A DNA stretch of 28,424 bases. Origin: a virus. The notes below the pieces were generated by a model that had not been told where the DNA came from, did no database searches, and was given only the letters and a program-made list of their open reading frames with translations. Of this stretch, positions 3,980 through 10,732 are shown piece after piece. The first letter of the stretch is position 1. Each line of letters begins with the position of its first letter. The stretch is from UHGV virus genome UHGV-0364842. The stretch is one strand, 5' to 3'. The position numbers and the translations under genes were made by a program.

Positions 3980-5125
3980 ATGCTCACCGTTAAGCAGATT
4001 GAAGCAGCAAAGCCGAAAGAAAAACCATACCGCCTACTCGATGGTAATGGCCTGTACCTTTATGTCCCTGTGTCAGGGAAAAAGGTATGGCAGCTTCGCT
4101 ACAAGATTGACGGTAAGGAGAAAATCCTGACCGTAGGAAAATATCCGCTAATGACTTTGCAGGAAGCAAGAGATAAAGCATGGACCGCGAGGAAAGACAT
4201 CTCGGTTGGCATCGATCCGGTAAAAGCGAAAAAGGCTTCGTCTAACAACAATTCCTTTAGTGCGATTTACAAGGAATGGTACGAGCACAAGAAGCAAGTC
4301 TGGTCAGTAGGCTATGCAAATGAACTTGCAAAAATGTTTGATGACGACATTTTACCTATCATCGGCGGCCTTGAAATTCAGGATATTGAGCCGATGCAAC
4401 TGCTGGAAGTAATCCGCAGATTTGAAGATCGCGGTGCAATGGAGCGAGCAAATAAAGCCCGCAGAAGATGCGGCGAGGTTTTCCGTTACGCTATTGTCAC
4501 TGGTAGGGCTAAATATAACCCGGCACCTGACCTTGCTGACGCCATGAAGGGATACCGCAAGAAAAACTTCCCGTTTCTTCCTGCAGACCAGATCCCGGCA
4601 TTTAACAAAGCACTGGCAACATTTTCAGGAAGCATCGTATCGCTCATTGCGACCAAGGTTTTACGCTATACAGCCCTCAGAACAAAAGAGCTTCGTTCCA
4701 TGCTATGGAAGAACGTCGATTTTGAAAACAGGATTATCACCATCGACGCCAGTGTGATGAAGGGACGCAAAATTCATGTAGTTCCTATGTCAGACCAGGT
4801 AGTTGAACTTCTCACTACGCTAAGCTCAATCACCAAACCAGTATCAGAGTTTGTTTTTGCCGGGCGCAACGATAAGAAAAAGCCAATCTGCGAGAACGCG
4901 GTGCTACTTGTGATCAAACAAATCGGCTATGAGGGTCTGGAAAGCGGTCACGGATTCAGGCATGAATTCAGCACGATTATGAACGAGCACGAATGGCCTG
5001 CTGATGCTATTGAAGTGCAACTGGCACATGCCAACGGCGGATCTGTGCGCGGGATTTACAACCATGCTCAGTATCTCGATAAGCGCAGAGAAATGATGCA
5101 GTGGTGGGCTGATTGGTTAGGGTAG
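3980..5125 (+). CDS. int: tyrosine integrase, P4/IntA-like
   Basis: N-terminus MLTVKQIEAAKPKEKPYRLLDGNGLYLYV is typical of P4-type integrases; C-terminal catalytic region with the HxxR...Y pattern. An in-frame GTG at 3944 is an alternative start. Confidence 0.9.
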   Translation: MLTVKQIEAAKPKEKPYRLLDGNGLYLYVPVSGKKVWQLRYKIDGKEKILTVGKYPLMTLQEARDKAWTARKDISVGIDPVKAKKASSNNNSFSAIYKEWYEHKKQVWSVGYANELAKMFDDDILPIIGGLEIQDIEPMQLLEVIRRFEDRGAMERANKARRRCGEVFRYAIVTGRAKYNPAPDLADAMKGYRKKNFPFLPADQIPAFNKALATFSGSIVSLIATKVLRYTALRTKELRSMLWKNVDFENRIITIDASVMKGRKIHVVPMSDQVVELLTTLSSITKPVSEFVFAGRNDKKKPICENAVLLVIKQIGYEGLESGHGFRHEFSTIMNEHEWPADAIEVQLAHANGGSVRGIYNHAQYLDKRREMMQWWADWLG

Positions 5126-5214
5126 CCATCCTTGGCATTAACACAGCATTTTTACGCAACAACACGGCACACCACGTTACGCGTCGGCACAGTGCGACAC
5201 GCGGATGTCACAAA

Positions 5215-7593
5215 TTAAACAGTGTATCCAGAAAATACGTATCGCTGAGTAACTGATGCTTCTGCTTGTATCTCAATTCCAGTTGAGCTAACTACGCAGT
5301 TAACTTCAAAAGATGTTGCTGAACCGATATTCATCGCAAACGTTCCGTTATTAACTCCTGTAGTTTTAGTAACTTTCTCTCCTGTTGACTTAGTAAATTC
5401 GATCGTTGTTGCTGTTGAACTTTTTGATATCGTGAATTTTAAATTACGATCACCAGAATCGCCATTATTTATAATAATAAATCTATCTCCAGTAGCGATA
5501 TTAGTAGTGGTTGGTACCCCAACCCTAAATAATACAACTGGAGATGATGAAATTCCATCAAACCCAACACGCATAATACCAACTGAGTTCCATAAGTGAC
5601 CAAAGTCTAACTCTGTACCAGATAGTACATTCCCGGTGCATGTACACATATCTGATAACGTAGGGTTTGATGATGGATTAGTTATCCTGCATCTTGTTTT
5701 TGAATTAAACTTATTATCAGAAATGACAAGATTCATATTAGAATACCCATCATTGTTAGTGGTGTAATCAGTAAATACAGTAAGGTCGCCAAACATACCT
5801 TTGTTATTTGATATATTCAGTGTGCCAGTAAACCCGCCACCACCAGATTGACTACCTGTGTTCATTTGCACCAATCCAACTACTAACGCATCTGGCAGAT
5901 CGAAAATATTGTCCGTAACCGTAATCTGCTGACGCAAGTTGTACGGGTACAAAGAAACACGTACAAAGTTAGTGCTAGTATTAGCAGGTGAAGAGAAGTG
6001 ACAGCCGGATATAACTACGTTAGTTAGAGGTGTGCCATTCGCAACGTAGTTAAGAGTAATTAGCTCGATATCACAGTTATGAATATGCACGAACCTATTA
6101 CCATACACCAACGGACCTACTGTTGGTGATCCTACCCAATCGCGTGTTTCTGCGAACAGGAATGTACCCTTGGAGTTGGCAAGTGTAATGTCCGGGAATA
6201 GCTCCTGCATGACACTGACGTAGTTACGGCGGTAGAACCAGCGCTTGTTAGTGCTACTGTACTGATAGGCCTCTTTGATTTTATGCGGCACCATAAGGCA
6301 GGAGTTCCAGCCAATGCAGTCTTCGATAGTGATATCACTCTCTTGAACAAGGTGCGCTTTATTGTAAATGTCGTACATTTCTAGAGTAGCATTAGATCTG
6401 CATTTAACTCCTTTTTGATATCCTTTGTAATGGCTAAGTGACCAGCAAGACACTAACGCCATTGCTGTATATCCGTTAGAACCATCTGCCCAAAAATCGT
6501 CATCATTATCAATAGAGTAGTCATGTATTGAAACGTTCTTCATAGCATGGCGAATTTGTTTTTCGTAGATATTTTCGTTAACACTACCTATTTGTATAAA
6601 TGTGCCAGCCATATTATGAACTGTGAAATTTGAAATATCTATTGTCTCGTGAGGGAAGTCTCGCGTAAGAAGAATGAAATCGTAAGGACTCTCAGCGTGA
6701 AAATGCGTTAATGAAATGCTATCGCAACCATAGCTTACTTCATCTGGATTTATATTTAATGGGCCGATCGCAGTAAATATTTCAACCCGACCAGTTGTAT
6801 AGAATTTAGATGCTTTTATGGATTTTATTTTTGTTATTGATCCATCAACCACACCAACCAGCCTTGGCCTGATAGATGAAATTTCGCTGCCATGGACAAT
6901 GAAATCTTCACCATAGAAATACCCATTTGTTTTTAAATAAAAGTTATAACCGTTACCTGGGTATATATCCCCACCCCCCCAAATATTAAGGAAAGATACT
7001 GAAATATTCATATCATCAGGAAGATATACGGATTTACCCATTAGATTTAGATTGACACCGCCAAACAAAGACTCCATCTCTTCAAGAGCGGTTTTGTTTA
7101 AAGACGCTGATAGCGGTGCATTATAAACGCCACCAAATGCGGATATGTCACCGTTCATCCATGATAAATACTTATCAAGTGATGCGTTAGATACATTTTC
7201 ACCTGAATGATGAATATATGATGTCCCATTTGGTTCAACCAGTCTTTGAGCCAACTGATCAGGGTCGTATTTCAGCACATTCGGAAAATAGAACTGCTGT
7301 GCACCATACGCATCATAAACAGCCATAGAATGGCCTTGCACGGTAACGAATTTGGCAATCTGTCCGTTATATACCGGATATCCGGCAGCGTTAATGATGA
7401 TTGGTTGCGAAACAGGAACGTGAGAACCGTCTTCGTTCTCCACATAAACCTGAATCTGGTTTTCAGGATTTACCGGGTCAGTGTCAATTTTACCGATATA
7501 AATTTTTCCATTGGCTACGGCTTTAAAAGAACGCGCCATAGTGAAGAGTTGCGAAGGCATGCTTACCACAACATTGGCTGTAATGTCTGTCAT
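5215..7593 (-). CDS. tailspike protein: P22 gp9-like head-binding domain with a divergent receptor-binding domain
   Basis: The first ~115 aa closely match the recalled P22 tailspike N-terminus ([11 protein letters not shown]...VLKYDPDQ); the remaining ~680 aa are unrelated to the P22 endorhamnosidase domain. Confidence 0.9.
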
Positions 7594-7693: not shown

Positions 7694-8617
7694 TCAGTAG
7701 CTATGTACTGAAGGAGGTAATTCTTTATTCTTAAGTCTCATCCATGCGGAAAGATTCGTTGGTCCGTCTGGCTCATTGATATCAACATCTCGTGTGTGAT
7801 TGATTAAAACGTCCCTCGCCATTCCGATAACATACGAGAACTCATGACCGTAGTCGTAGCATCTGCCGGAATAATTCGATTGAATTTGTTTTAGCGCCGG
7901 ATACAGTTCGCGGAATAATGCCTGTGAGCGGTTGGCATAATCCCATAACCATACAAGGCTGTTTGCTTCTTTTGCAGAAAGCTCGTTGGTTTTCTTCTCT
8001 TGTTTGCCAATGAACTCACCTTCAAGCGGAACGCGAGCAGCAAGTGACAGTGCTTCGGTAAACTGCTCCTCACTGATTTCTTTGTACGAACATCCAAAAT
8101 GGGATTTCAGTGACGACCACATGGTGATCATCGCCTTAGCCTGTTTTTCTTTTGGCAGAGACTGACCGCGACTCATGACGAGTTGTTTAATGGCTTCCTG
8201 CTGTTCAGTGGTGATTTTACCCGGCAACGCTTTTTTAGCTTTGCGTGGGTTAACTACATGGCCTTTAGTCCAGTACTCGTATAGCACATCGTCACACTCT
8301 TCTTGATACTGGATTACATTGTCGCGGATTTCAGGGCGGACTTTGTTAGGGCTGATGGTTTGCAACCAGCCATTCAGTTTACGTAAAGCAAGGCAAATCA
8401 TGGTCTGCACACCGCCAACTGAAGGTATTGCGATTTCCACAATACCTTTAGCAAATCTTTGTTTTAACTTTGTAAACTGTGAAGCCCAATCCATACCCAT
8501 TCCCTCAACGATAGGTTTCATTGGGGTGTACGGCTCACCGTTGTGATTGACAACATAAAGCTCTGCGCCGTGGAATGGTACATTGATAGTAGATACTGCT
8601 GTTGCTATACTTTTCAT
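7694..8617 (-). CDS. ant: antirepressor Ant
   Basis: 307 aa; N-terminus [23 protein letters not shown] matches P22-type Ant/BRO-N antirepressors; sits downstream of arc. Confidence 0.8.
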
Positions 8618-8680
8618 GTCGTTAATTCCTATGCGTGGTTTTACGATATCGAAGCCCTGACTGTTCCCGCAGTTGGGGCT

Positions 8681-8863
8681 TCACTGTTTTATGTTCACAT
8701 CTAACATTGTTTTTCTAGAATTTAACTCTTTCCCCATCGCTTCAACGCAAAGAGATACACAACCACTACAGATAAATATCTCTGCTTTAGCGCGAATCAA
8801 CATTGCACATTCATGCTGAGGCTTTCCGCAGAAGGAGCACTTAAAGCCATCTTCTTTATTCAT
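8681..8863 (-). CDS. ClpX N-terminal zinc-binding-domain-like mini-protein
   Basis: 60 aa; CSFCGKPQHE...LI...FICSGCVSLC matches the ClpX N-domain signature (CSFCGKSQHEV...YICDECVDLC in E. coli ClpX, from memory). Start overlaps the arc stop. Confidence 0.6.
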   Translation of the reverse strand: MNKEDGFKCSFCGKPQHECAMLIRAKAEIFICSGCVSLCVEAMGKELNSRKTMLDVNIKQ

Positions 8864-9012
8864 ATCGCCACCCCCTCTTTCTTCAGGCTGTCTATCAGGC
8901 GCTTGATAACCTCTGAGTTAAACGACCTGCACTCTTCCTTTGCCCTGCTACCGATAGCATCCTTTAACGACTGCGGCATCCTTACCAAAATCTTACTTAT
9001 TTCTTTCTCCAT
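8860..9012 (-). CDS. arc: Arc-like ribbon-helix-helix repressor
   Basis: 50 aa from the ATG at 9012 (GGAGGG RBS); RSFNSEVIKRLIDSLKKEG resembles P22 Arc RSVNSEIYQRVMESFKKEG. Confidence 0.75.
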   Translation of the reverse strand: MEKEISKILVRMPQSLKDAIGSRAKEECRSFNSEVIKRLIDSLKKEGVAI

Positions 9013-9126
9013 GTTACCCTCCACACAAACAACTCTTTTCGAATACAAAAGATAGCAAAGTGAGTATATCTAGTCAAAATTTTTTTGCATACACTTTGAT
9101 ATCAAATTGAATACCAAAGGTGTGTT
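9013..9126. promoter_or_regulatory. divergent immI promoter/operator region (arc-ant operon versus mnt operon)
   Basis: Intergenic region between divergent arc and mnt; perfect 12-bp palindrome TTTGATATCAAA at 9095-9106, flanked by ACACTTTG / CAAAgGTGT. Confidence 0.5.
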
Positions 9127-9375
9127 ATGGCAAAGGGTGTGTCAATTTCTCCAACTACGGTAAGAATCCCTGAATCTTTACGCGAGGCTCTTGCTGTTAG
9201 AGCATCAAAAAATGGTCGCTCTGTTAACTCCGAGATCGTCATGATTTTGCAAGCCGCGATTGATGAAGATAGGTCGCCAAAGTCAGTTGAGTCATTTGCT
9301 CAGCAAGAAGCTGACAAATTCAAAGAGGCGCTGCTGGAGACGCTGAAAACCATGTATGGTAAGGATGATAAATAA
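9127..9375 (+). CDS. mnt: Mnt-like repressor (Arc/MetJ family)
   Basis: 82 aa; NGRSVNSEIVMILQAAI resembles the P22 Mnt N-terminal ribbon-helix-helix domain; divergent from arc. Confidence 0.8.
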   Translation: MAKGVSISPTTVRIPESLREALAVRASKNGRSVNSEIVMILQAAIDEDRSPKSVESFAQQEADKFKEALLETLKTMYGKDDK

Positions 9376-9911
9376 TGCTGCACACAATTCATTTCTTATG
9401 CCCCGTTAACACCGCCACTGTTGGGCAACTTCAGAACCACTGTCTCACCGCATTATCTCAAGGCGCAACTGAATTAAATATCCATATATCAAGTCAGGGA
9501 GGGGAAACTGCCGCTGGTTTTACTGCGTATAACTTTCTTAAGTCACTCCCTGTTACCGTTAGAACTCACAACATAAGCAATGTTGAATCCATAGCTAATA
9601 TCGTTTTCCTGGCTGGCTCAGAACGTTTCGCAAACCCATTATCAAGATTCCTGTTACATCCTCTATTATGGGGCTTTGCCACCCCAGCCGCCGACCATGC
9701 CAGACTGAGAGAGTACGGGAAATGCCTCGATAACGATCTTGATCGCTTCGTTGAGACGTTCAATATCGACATCGGAACCCATATTAGGTGGGCATCCCTG
9801 ATAGCAGACTCGACCATTTTGGATGCTAACAAGGCTCTTGAGCATGGCATAATTAATTCCATAAAAACTGCAAGGCTGGCATCCAATCAGGCAAACTGGT
9901 GGGTTGTTTGA
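9375..9911 (+). CDS. ClpP-family serine protease-like protein, N-terminally truncated relative to ClpP
   Basis: 178 aa; aligns with the ClpP core by eye: ISSQGG vs INSPGG; Ser in NVESIAN vs GQAASMG; His in LLHPL vs MIHQP; Asp in ADSTILD vs ERDRFLS; ALEHGIINSI vs AVEYGLVDSI. Start overlaps the mnt stop (TAATG). Confidence 0.6.
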   Translation: MLHTIHFLCPVNTATVGQLQNHCLTALSQGATELNIHISSQGGETAAGFTAYNFLKSLPVTVRTHNISNVESIANIVFLAGSERFANPLSRFLLHPLLWGFATPAADHARLREYGKCLDNDLDRFVETFNIDIGTHIRWASLIADSTILDANKALEHGIINSIKTARLASNQANWWVV

Positions 9912-9936: not shown

Positions 9937-9962
9937 AAAAAACCCACCTGACGGTGGGTTTC
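9937..9962. terminator. bidirectional rho-independent terminator
   Basis: AAAAAA-CCCACC-tgac-GGTGGG-TTT; sits between the convergent ClpP-like gene (+) and lipoprotein gene (-). Confidence 0.6.
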
Positions 9963-9967
9963 ATTTC

Positions 9968-10387
9968 TTAATCTTGCTTCGTGGAAGGTATAAGAGATGC
10001 ATTTGCCTCTTTTGGCTTCAATGTATACATCCCACCATTAAATGGATCAACAGCAAGCCAACCAATTAACCCACCAAACACAAGGTTTCCACCAATATAC
10101 CAACCATTAGCATTGGCTTTGATTGGCAGGGTAACTGGTTCGTACCCATCCTTCTCCATAGTGATCTGGTAGCTCTTTTTGCCAAAATAGCTACCATCTG
10201 ACTTGGCGAGTGTTACACCTTGTGGAGTCTTACCTTGCGCAACAATCACACCCGATTCATCTTTTACCTTAAAGCTCGCGCCAGAAGGATTGCTGTTCAC
10301 TTGCACAAGTTGCGTTTCATCACCAACAATAGTTGCGCACCCAGATAACATGATAACGCCAGCAACGACGCTAATAATCCTCTTCAT
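9968..10387 (-). CDS. lipoprotein with PEGA-like domain (candidate moron / superinfection exclusion)
   Basis: Signal peptide MKRIISVVAGVIMLSGC with an LSGC lipobox; PEGA-like segment (SNPSGASFKV...GKTPQGVTL...KDGYEPVT). An alternative start at 10399 is possible. Confidence 0.6.
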   Translation of the reverse strand: MKRIISVVAGVIMLSGCATIVGDETQLVQVNSNPSGASFKVKDESGVIVAQGKTPQGVTLAKSDGSYFGKKSYQITMEKDGYEPVTLPIKANANGWYIGGNLVFGGLIGWLAVDPFNGGMYTLKPKEANASLIPSTKQD

Positions 10388-10504
10388 ATCAATTTCCATA
10401 TTTAAAAAACCGGAAACATCCTAATGACAAAACATTCAAATGTGAAGTAGGCAAAAGATGTTTACTTTTTTCATGGTATCCTGCTCAAAACTAAGGAGGT
10501 TGGT

Positions 10505-10732
10505 GTGAAGCGATGGTTCCTCATAATTACTGTTTTCGCGATCATTTACACTATTTTCCCTGCATTAAAAGCACCAATGCAAATAATTTCACTAGCAATA
10601 ATTTCGATTGGTGCTTTCATTGCAGTAGCCGTACTTGTGTTTAAGGTTTTAAAGTTTTTAGTTTGGCTATCAAAAGATGATGGATGCAAAGTTCATCAAG
10701 AAAAAGAAGGCAAAATAACCAAAGTTGACTAA
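10505..10732 (+). CDS. small hydrophobic membrane protein (two predicted TM helices)
   Basis: GTG start after an AAGGAGG RBS; 75 aa with two hydrophobic stretches; AT-rich. Confidence 0.45.
   Translation: MKRWFLIITVFAIIYTIFPALKAPMQIISLAIISIGAFIAVAVLVFKVLKFLVWLSKDDGCKVHQEKEGKITKVD

Follow-up and report, generated by a model that had tools for sequence, protein, structure and literature searches.

We found that a P22-like (Lederbergvirus) prophage or phage genome, UHGV virus genome UHGV-0364842 (28,424 nucleotides; this whole stretch of DNA is referred to below as the window), carries two genes related to the bacterial Clp protease in its immI (mnt/arc/ant) region. One, at 9375-9911, encodes a ClpP-like protein of 178 amino acids (aa). 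The other, at 8681-8863, encodes a ClpX-type zinc-finger mini-protein of 60 aa, which we call ZF-A. An earlier note on this DNA, made from its letters and a list of open reading frames (ORFs), had picked out the same two ORFs, and both were confirmed in the window sequence at these positions. The note had further proposed that they form one phage proteolysis module. We found instead that ZF-A and the ClpP-like gene are inherited independently, and because the two genes assort in this way, a two-gene module is unsupported. We think it somewhat probable that these are two separate accessory ("moron") genes, each with its own Clp-directed role, which happen to share the immI region of one Lederbergvirus prophage.

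The case for a dedicated module, in which the finger might recognise substrates, such as a repressor or antirepressor, for the truncated protease, starts from the position of the genes: both are Clp-related, they are less than 500 bp apart, and they flank the immI control region. The pairing also recurs, as ZF-A and the ClpP-like gene are combined in at least three other sequences (L001/L027, L018, L028). When we examined co-occurrence, however, the proposal failed. We surveyed 5,426 complete genomes of E. coli: about 128 contained the ClpP-like gene (identity of at least 95%) and 10 contained ZF-A, and the two were found together, in adjacent positions, in a single genome, that of strain APEC20/16 (1 of 10 zinc-finger genomes and 1 of about 128 ClpP-like genomes). 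The picture was similar in viral contigs that carry ClpP-like relatives, with ZF-A in 1 of 80, and the ClpP-like gene was present in 2 of the 10 ZF-A contexts retrieved. Prophages with ZF-A mostly hold other cargo past mnt (P63C, Panacea or SieA-type genes), and those with the ClpP-like gene mostly have another small ORF, or none, in the gap between arc and ant. Counting ZF-B, a second zinc-ribbon ORF found in this gap, as equivalent to ZF-A adds six joint cases, for a total of 7 among 383 zinc-finger and 128 ClpP-like genomes. Under independence, at least 9 joint cases would be expected whatever the number of prophages: 9 is the expectation if all 5,426 genomes carried such a prophage, and a realistic number would give many more. 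A strict zinc-finger pattern search of the ClpP-like loci missed ZF-B and a third ORF of this kind, ZF-C, and both were taken from direct analysis of the gap. At the lambdoid, Mu-like and other myovirus-type loci that carry ClpP-like relatives, the immI region is absent and no zinc-finger gene was found within about 6 kb. Moreover, in the window the two genes lie in divergent operons under opposite regulation, ZF-A under Pant and the ClpP-like gene under Pmnt, and we know of no route by which a ClpX zinc-binding domain (ZBD) without an AAA+ ring could feed the ClpP chamber. We consider a dedicated module very unlikely. Other possibilities raised earlier, namely a protease that depends on a host ATPase, a decoy for host ClpXP, and a moron in the position of sieA, may each apply gene by gene.

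The 178-aa protein matches the Pfam CLP_protease family (PF00574) over residues 24-165 (E = 4.3e-12; 46.7 bits, where the cut-off is 20.2), which bears out a resemblance that had been read by eye. Its Met1 aligns to Leu38 of the E. coli ClpP precursor. The protein is without the propeptide, the axial loop and helix A, and relative to E. coli ClpP about 23 mature residues are gone; the N-terminal truncation described earlier is therefore real, but it is larger than the roughly 20 residues that had been estimated. Ser72 and His95 occupy the positions of the catalytic Ser and His in both E. coli ClpP and the Pseudomonas protein PpClpP1 (described below), and neither residue varies among 27 homologues. 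The third member of the triad fared differently, as the Asp that had been assigned to an expected motif was not upheld: in the canonical Asp column the window protein has Ser146 and the family has Ser or Ala throughout; the residue beside it, Asp145, is not conserved among the homologues. Relative to canonical E. coli ClpP (family S14), with which it shares 22% identity, the phage protein has the same fold, aligned Ser and His residues and a retained handle helix, but it lacks the N-terminus that gates the pore and contacts ClpX or ClpA, and it lacks the conserved Asp.

A search of solved structures with the 178-aa protein returned a single outstanding match, 9UXT_A (E = 4e-35, residues 3-175). 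An AF2 monomer model built on the family alignment (pLDDT 89.5) shows a predicted ClpP alpha/beta fold that includes the handle helix, and Foldseek again ranked 9UXT best (TM 0.93, rmsd 1.7 A), with canonical ClpPs, including that of E. coli, at TM of about 0.75. In comparison with its Pectobacterium homologue, the gene is under strong purifying selection (pN 0.114, pS 0.655, dN/dS about 0.08).

The structure 9UXT is that of ClpP1 from Pseudomonas plecoglossicida (PpClpP1), which is itself N-terminally truncated (PLoS Pathog 2026, PMC12900304). The "triad" of PpClpP1 is Ser-His-Pro; the enzyme needs the first two residues but can do without the third, and cryo-EM revealed a homo-tetradecamer with an axial pore of 42.7 A (PMC12900304). 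Its peptidase efficiency is about 13-fold below that of the canonical paralogue, and it does not bind ClpX; together with canonical ClpP, it forms a hetero-tetradecamer that binds ClpX and outperforms either protein alone (PMC12900304). The phage protein matches PpClpP1 over its full length at 38-40% identity (178 aa and 183 aa, respectively) with a near-identical predicted fold. In both, the axial loop and helix A have been removed, the catalytic Ser and His have been kept, and the canonical Asp has been replaced. Judged by alignment and predicted fold, the 178-aa protein belongs to the N-truncated ClpP paralogues exemplified by PpClpP1, and it is a prophage-borne addition to this recently characterised group. 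The phage family differs from PpClpP1 in having a conserved C-terminal NWWV motif. This motif, within residues 171-178, is nearly invariant in the prophage family, is predicted to form a beta-strand, and is without an equivalent in E. coli ClpP.

The window gene and its relatives in Enterobacterales are prophage cargo, unlike the orthologues of PpClpP1, which are chromosomal. We considered whether PpClpP1 might itself be a prophage gene, and this was refuted by a conserved chromosomal neighbourhood in Pseudomonas: its orthologues (gene 6001-6552 in L114-L118) consistently lie beside KGG-repeat stress proteins and a DUF6555 protein. This neighbourhood hints at a role in stress or stationary phase, one that is not taken up in the PpClpP1 paper (PMC12900304).

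ZF-A matches the Pfam family zf-C4_ClpX (PF06689; E = 7.6e-11, 42.2 bits against a cut-off of 27), in agreement with the signature noticed earlier. Its identity to E. coli K-12 ClpX (residues 15-52) is 49%, and it matches the ClpX ZBD structure 1OVX at 1.7e-07. Its four Cys ligands, C9, C12, C32 and C35 (CxxC...CxxC), have the same spacing as those of the ClpX N-domain (PF06689; 1OVX, 2DS5), and secondary-structure prediction gives it a beta-hairpin and then a helix. ZF-A differs from the ClpX N-domain in that it is free-standing, has a 15-residue basic tail with no ClpX counterpart, and is encoded in the antirepressor operon of a phage. An AAA+ module is missing, as the 60-aa ORF ends 18 residues past the last Cys, and ZF-A is thus not a ClpX. 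By these sequence criteria it is a stand-alone member of the known ClpX zinc-binding domain family. The gene has a GC content of 38%, compared with 46.5% for the window. We found the exact protein on 469 contigs from E. coli, Salmonella and Shigella; the known variants are all near-identical, and there are no close relatives at 50% clustering. The nearest proteins other than ZF-A itself are short and carry one to six tandem ClpX-type fingers, and none of these is ClpX. Small proteins with a ClpX-type zinc domain are also present in other phages, for example P88 and Bacillus phage G. In one variant (L007 3501-3683, E. coli NCCP12480, protein P0073), the first zinc ligand is replaced by Tyr (C9Y), a change that would be expected to destroy the zinc site.

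Both genes are embedded in the immI region, as the earlier note had described, and this region is complete. The window carries an integrase, a tailspike, immI, ejection proteins, and head and packaging genes, and the region of interest is 99.7-100% identical in the prophage of E. coli APEC20/16 and in one IMG/VR contig. With divergent mnt and arc-ant operons and a sar antisense RNA, the immI region is of the P22 type. The order of its parts is ant, sar, the 60-aa ORF, arc, the divergent control region, mnt, the 178-aa ORF and a hairpin:

7694..8617, minus strand: ant antirepressor, 307 aa (Pfam P22_AR_N 2.8e-44, P22_AR_C 5.6e-30; phrog_245 9.3e-100)
8583..8611, plus strand: Psar-like promoter within the start of ant (TTGATA-17-TATACT, 10/12 matches, extended TG; consensus match only)
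8619..8685, plus strand: sar antisense RNA (Rfam RF00262, full length, 73.8 bits against a gathering score of 43, E = 1.1e-14)
8681..8863, minus strand: ClpX-type zinc-finger mini-protein ZF-A, 60 aa (Pfam zf-C4_ClpX, E-value as above)
8860..9012, minus strand: arc, 50 aa from the RefSeq ATG (Pfam Arc 2.5e-12)
9049..9077, minus strand: Pant-like promoter in the arc/mnt divergent control region (TTGACT-17-TATCTT with TG; consensus match only)
9127..9375, plus strand: mnt ribbon-helix-helix repressor, 82 aa (Pfam Arc 9.6e-11, FitA-like_RHH 2.1e-08)
9375..9911, plus strand: N-truncated ClpP paralogue of the PpClpP1 type, 178 aa (Pfam CLP_protease, E-value as above)
9940..9961, no strand assigned: GC-rich hairpin between the convergent ClpP-like and lipoprotein genes (terminator-like site, 9 pairs)

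Each of the two extra genes overlaps its upstream neighbour, in both cases as had been reported: the stop of mnt overlaps the start of the ClpP-like gene in a TAATG at 9373-9377, and the stop of arc overlaps the start of ZF-A in an ATGA at 8860-8863. The arc ORF stays open to a TTG at 9048, and RefSeq annotates the 50-aa form. The Pectobacterium counterpart of mnt also matches Repressor_Mnt. The position of the Psar-like site agrees with that of the annotated Psar of epsilon34, and the Pant-like site is the positional counterpart of Pant/Pmnt in that phage; a terminator-like hairpin of sar lies at 8651-8682. The hairpin at 9940-9961, in which the T-run is stronger on the minus strand, is likely a bidirectional terminator that ends the mnt-clpP transcript.

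Compared with the immI regions of P22 and epsilon34, the window shares all of the canonical parts, their order and their orientation, including a sar RNA antisense to the region upstream of ant, but it has two extra genes, one between arc and sar and one that ends the mnt unit. Neither gene is present in P22 or epsilon34, which for P22 agrees with the earlier note. In epsilon34 a terminator directly follows mnt, whereas in the window the ClpP-like gene is found there.

The E. coli genomes that carry the ClpP-like gene include those of APEC O1 and the type strain ATCC 11775, and the RefSeq name of the product is "ATP-dependent Clp protease proteolytic subunit." Its homologues, at 50-98% identity, are spread across Enterobacterales and extend to Chromobacterium. 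All of their contexts are prophages, of differing types: a P22-like mnt-clpP arrangement in Pectobacterium, lambdoid prophages of Klebsiella in which the gene lies between lysis and packaging genes, lambdoid prophages of Proteus in which it adjoins the N antiterminator, a myovirus-type prophage of Chromobacterium, and a Mu-like tail gene cluster. Outside immI, the gene in almost all cases stands alone, as an insert whose strand is opposite to that of the flanking genes, an arrangement typical of a lysogen-expressed moron. Same-strand ORFs upstream of the distant ClpP-like genes gave no informative Pfam match except one DUF4145, and promoter and terminator scans near the ClpP-like genes of other prophages did no better than in shuffled sequence. 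Among P22-like prophages, a ClpP-like gene that is 98-100% identical abuts mnt alleles that are just 36-100% identical, and the presence of a near-identical gene beside divergent alleles points to a mosaic boundary at the end of mnt. One Klebsiella homologue (L009-L011, gene 5001-5717, protein P0026) is annotated at 238 aa; the N-terminus of the family aligns to its Met53, and the annotated start is probably too far upstream.

The record of phage phiv205-1 (L003, MN340231.1 10718-11254) labels the ClpP-like gene "head maturation protease." This raises the alternative that the gene is a displaced or relic prohead protease with a role in the capsid only, or with none. The best PHROG match of the window protein is indeed to phrog_94, "head maturation protease" (4.9e-21), the family of ClpP-type prohead proteases such as that of Streptococcus phage phi3396, and phage prohead proteases were next-best in tblastn at 25-32% identity. 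The profile similarity, however, covers just the protease core (positions 110-254 of a 622-position profile), the phage protein has neither a scaffold nor a C-terminal domain, and the bacterial paralogue PpClpP1 is closer in both sequence identity and fold. Gene position also argues against such a role, as the gene is located in immI, far from the head cluster and coupled to a lysogeny repressor, and its relatives within late operons are on the opposite strand. P22-type capsids mature without a protease. Decay is ruled out by the low dN/dS. We regard a prohead protease, whether displaced or relic, as extremely unlikely. The phiv205-1 label reflects the PHROG best match and is doubtful because only the core is matched, the gene is outside the head genes and the prohead proteases are more distant; it has probably been carried over too far from prohead proteases of the ClpP type.

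The gap between arc and sar/ant, in which ZF-A is found, is a general cargo slot in P22-like prophages. We observed at least six alternative occupants, and the slot may also be empty, as it is in P22 and epsilon34. One common occupant is the zinc-ribbon protein ZF-B, a 67-aa ORF of phrog_7150 (MSKECCFCGISES...; L049 4264-4467, minus strand; phage CUS-3, CP000711.1 6562-6762), which is present in 373 of the 5,426 complete E. coli genomes as well as in CUS-3, with no gene annotation in RefSeq. ZF-C is a 63-aa ORF in the slot of L029 that is 37% identical to ZF-B. All three zinc-finger ORFs touch phrog_5259, and ZF-A alone passes the Pfam ClpX threshold. Where the ClpP-like gene is present, the usual occupant is an unrelated 57-aa ORF of phrog_17642 with a GTG start and no Pfam match (VIRLDAVVKEIAIT...; L002 1937-2110 and L003 3560-3733, both minus strand). 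Other occupants are an ORF of 89 aa whose N-terminus is hydrophobic (L055) and one of 73 aa (L058).

The constancy of this position could suggest that ZF-A is a small nucleic-acid- or protein-binding regulator of the Pant operon, acting on ant translation or Ant activity, and that its likeness to ClpX reflects shared zinc-ribbon ancestry and not a ClpX-directed function. ZF-A lay between arc and sar/ant in 10 of the 10 distinct contexts retrieved, the same slot holds ZF-B and ZF-C, which both fall below the Pfam ClpX threshold, and many proteins other than ClpX carry ClpX-type zinc domains, often as tandem repeats. Across the ZF-A contexts, however, the N-terminal domain of the downstream Ant varies between P22_AR_N, Bro-N and KilA-N while ZF-A remains identical, which argues against a specific Ant partner. 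The fact that the slot may be empty or may hold unrelated ORFs argues that its occupant is dispensable for immI regulation, and 49% identity to the E. coli ClpX ZBD is high for fold sharing alone. A Pant-operon regulator therefore seems to us a plausible but unlikely alternative.

We favour separate Clp-directed roles for the two proteins, and their oligomeric states, host partners and biological pay-off might be as follows. In the P22 model, Pmnt is on in the lysogen, and Pant is on only early in infection or in the absence of Mnt. Because the ClpP-like gene is coupled to mnt and is followed by the hairpin, its expression would be driven by Pmnt in the lysogen, at a time when ant is silent. 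If it behaves like PpClpP1, the protein would form a wide-pore tetradecamer with weak Ser-His peptidase activity, docking neither ClpX nor ClpA by itself. E. coli has a single ClpP, and a heptamer of the phage protein could stack on a ring of this sole host ClpP, creating a second ClpP isoform with altered ClpXP/ClpAP output.

Contact between the phage protein and host ClpP could also work in another way. The ClpP-like protein might be a dominant-negative subunit that co-assembles with or caps host ClpP and lowers ClpXP/ClpAP activity in the lysogen, which together with the finger decoys would amount to a general anti-Clp strategy. The absence of the ATPase-contacting N-terminal loops and of the canonical Asp would suit such a role, as would the inability of the homologue PpClpP1 to bind ClpX (PMC12900304). 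On the other hand, the invariance of Ser72 and His95 and the strong purifying selection would argue for retained catalysis, and the sole homologue to have been tested gained activity on hetero-assembly (PMC12900304). We judge a dominant-negative role to be quite unlikely, and prefer an isoform that alters ClpXP/ClpAP output.

The pay-off of the ClpP-like gene is most likely lysogen fitness or the exclusion of other phages, as opposed to regulation of immI; control of protease-dependent systems may be another benefit. A general benefit of this kind is favoured over action on Ant or the repressor because the family is also found in unrelated prophages that have no immI. Should co-assembly prove true, about 2% of sequenced E. 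coli strains, including APEC O1 and the type strain ATCC 11775, would have altered ClpXP/ClpAP, and this could touch stress responses, toxin-antitoxin turnover, phage susceptibility and the action of ClpP-targeting drugs.

ZF-A would be made at a different time. As it is translationally coupled to arc within the Pant operon, it should be produced alongside Arc and Ant, soon after infection or whenever Mnt is lacking. It could then be in competition with host ClpX for adaptors and substrates whose docking site is the ClpX N-domain; alternatively, it could pair with the zinc-binding domain of ClpX itself. Either mode would lead to a transient dampening of adaptor-dependent ClpXP degradation. Competition is the simplest proposal, since the ClpX ZBD is the docking platform for SspB and RssB, and the isolated ZBD inhibits the RssB-dependent breakdown of sigma-S by ClpXP in trans (PMC7226468). 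A free ClpX ZBD made together with an antirepressor would be a simple phage decoy for the adaptor site of a host protease.

A broader proposal, which we put forward tentatively and consider unlikely, is that temperate enterobacterial phages act on host Clp from both sides, with a second, wide-pore ClpP isoform supplied by the prophage and with infection-phase ZBD mimics from the Pant operon that block docking to ClpX. If so, the isoform could exclude other phages or stabilise lysogeny, in the manner of ClpP1 with ClpP2 in Pseudomonas, and the ZBD mimics would represent an anti-host or anti-defence function comparable to that of phage-encoded Lon inhibitors.

Several observations weigh against the roles proposed here. 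PpClpP1 is just 38-40% identical to the window protein, has Pro where the phage family has Ser or Ala at the third triad position, and has orthologues that are chromosomal across Pseudomonas, in a stress-protein neighbourhood and not in prophages; its behaviour may not transfer. A scan of both Clp-related proteins and two neighbours against PADLOC-DB matched neither the ClpP-like nor the zinc-finger protein to a defence-system model at E <= 0.1. For ZF-A, the single-sequence AF2 model is poor (pLDDT 58.7), and a Foldseek search with it ranks ClpX first without significance; we left this result out of the evidence. Finally, the consensus matches to promoters and terminators in the window are no commoner than in shuffled sequence.

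Searches of the literature returned the PpClpP1 paper and general ClpX papers, and no paper on either phage gene. The earlier note had asked whether the two genes might be common and already characterised in P22-like immI regions. They are common, and both have been annotated automatically (WP_021566261.1, WP_047668240.1), but a characterisation was not found. The family assignments of the two proteins had thus already been made in hundreds of genomes and are in themselves unsurprising. For annotation, our analysis corrects a likely mis-assignment as "head maturation protease" and brings to light ZF-B, a common occupant of the arc-ant slot that RefSeq leaves unannotated.

Between the ClpP-like gene and the gene for the ejection protein, where P22 has sieA, are two further genes that resemble cargo. 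The first, at 9968-10399 on the minus strand, encodes a lipoprotein-like protein of 143 aa with a weak PEGA-domain match (phrog_6823, the family of epsilon34 gp15). The second, a 75-aa ORF at 10505-10732 on the plus strand, is hydrophobic in sequence and weakly matches a 4TM effector model. In some other P22-like prophages (L056 2310-2567 and L057 4799-5053, plus strand), a second small gene separates mnt from the ClpP-like gene, and in L008 (3926-4458) two Arc-family genes are annotated in tandem. The extra gene and the tandem Arc genes indicate that the mnt side of immI, too, varies in gene number.

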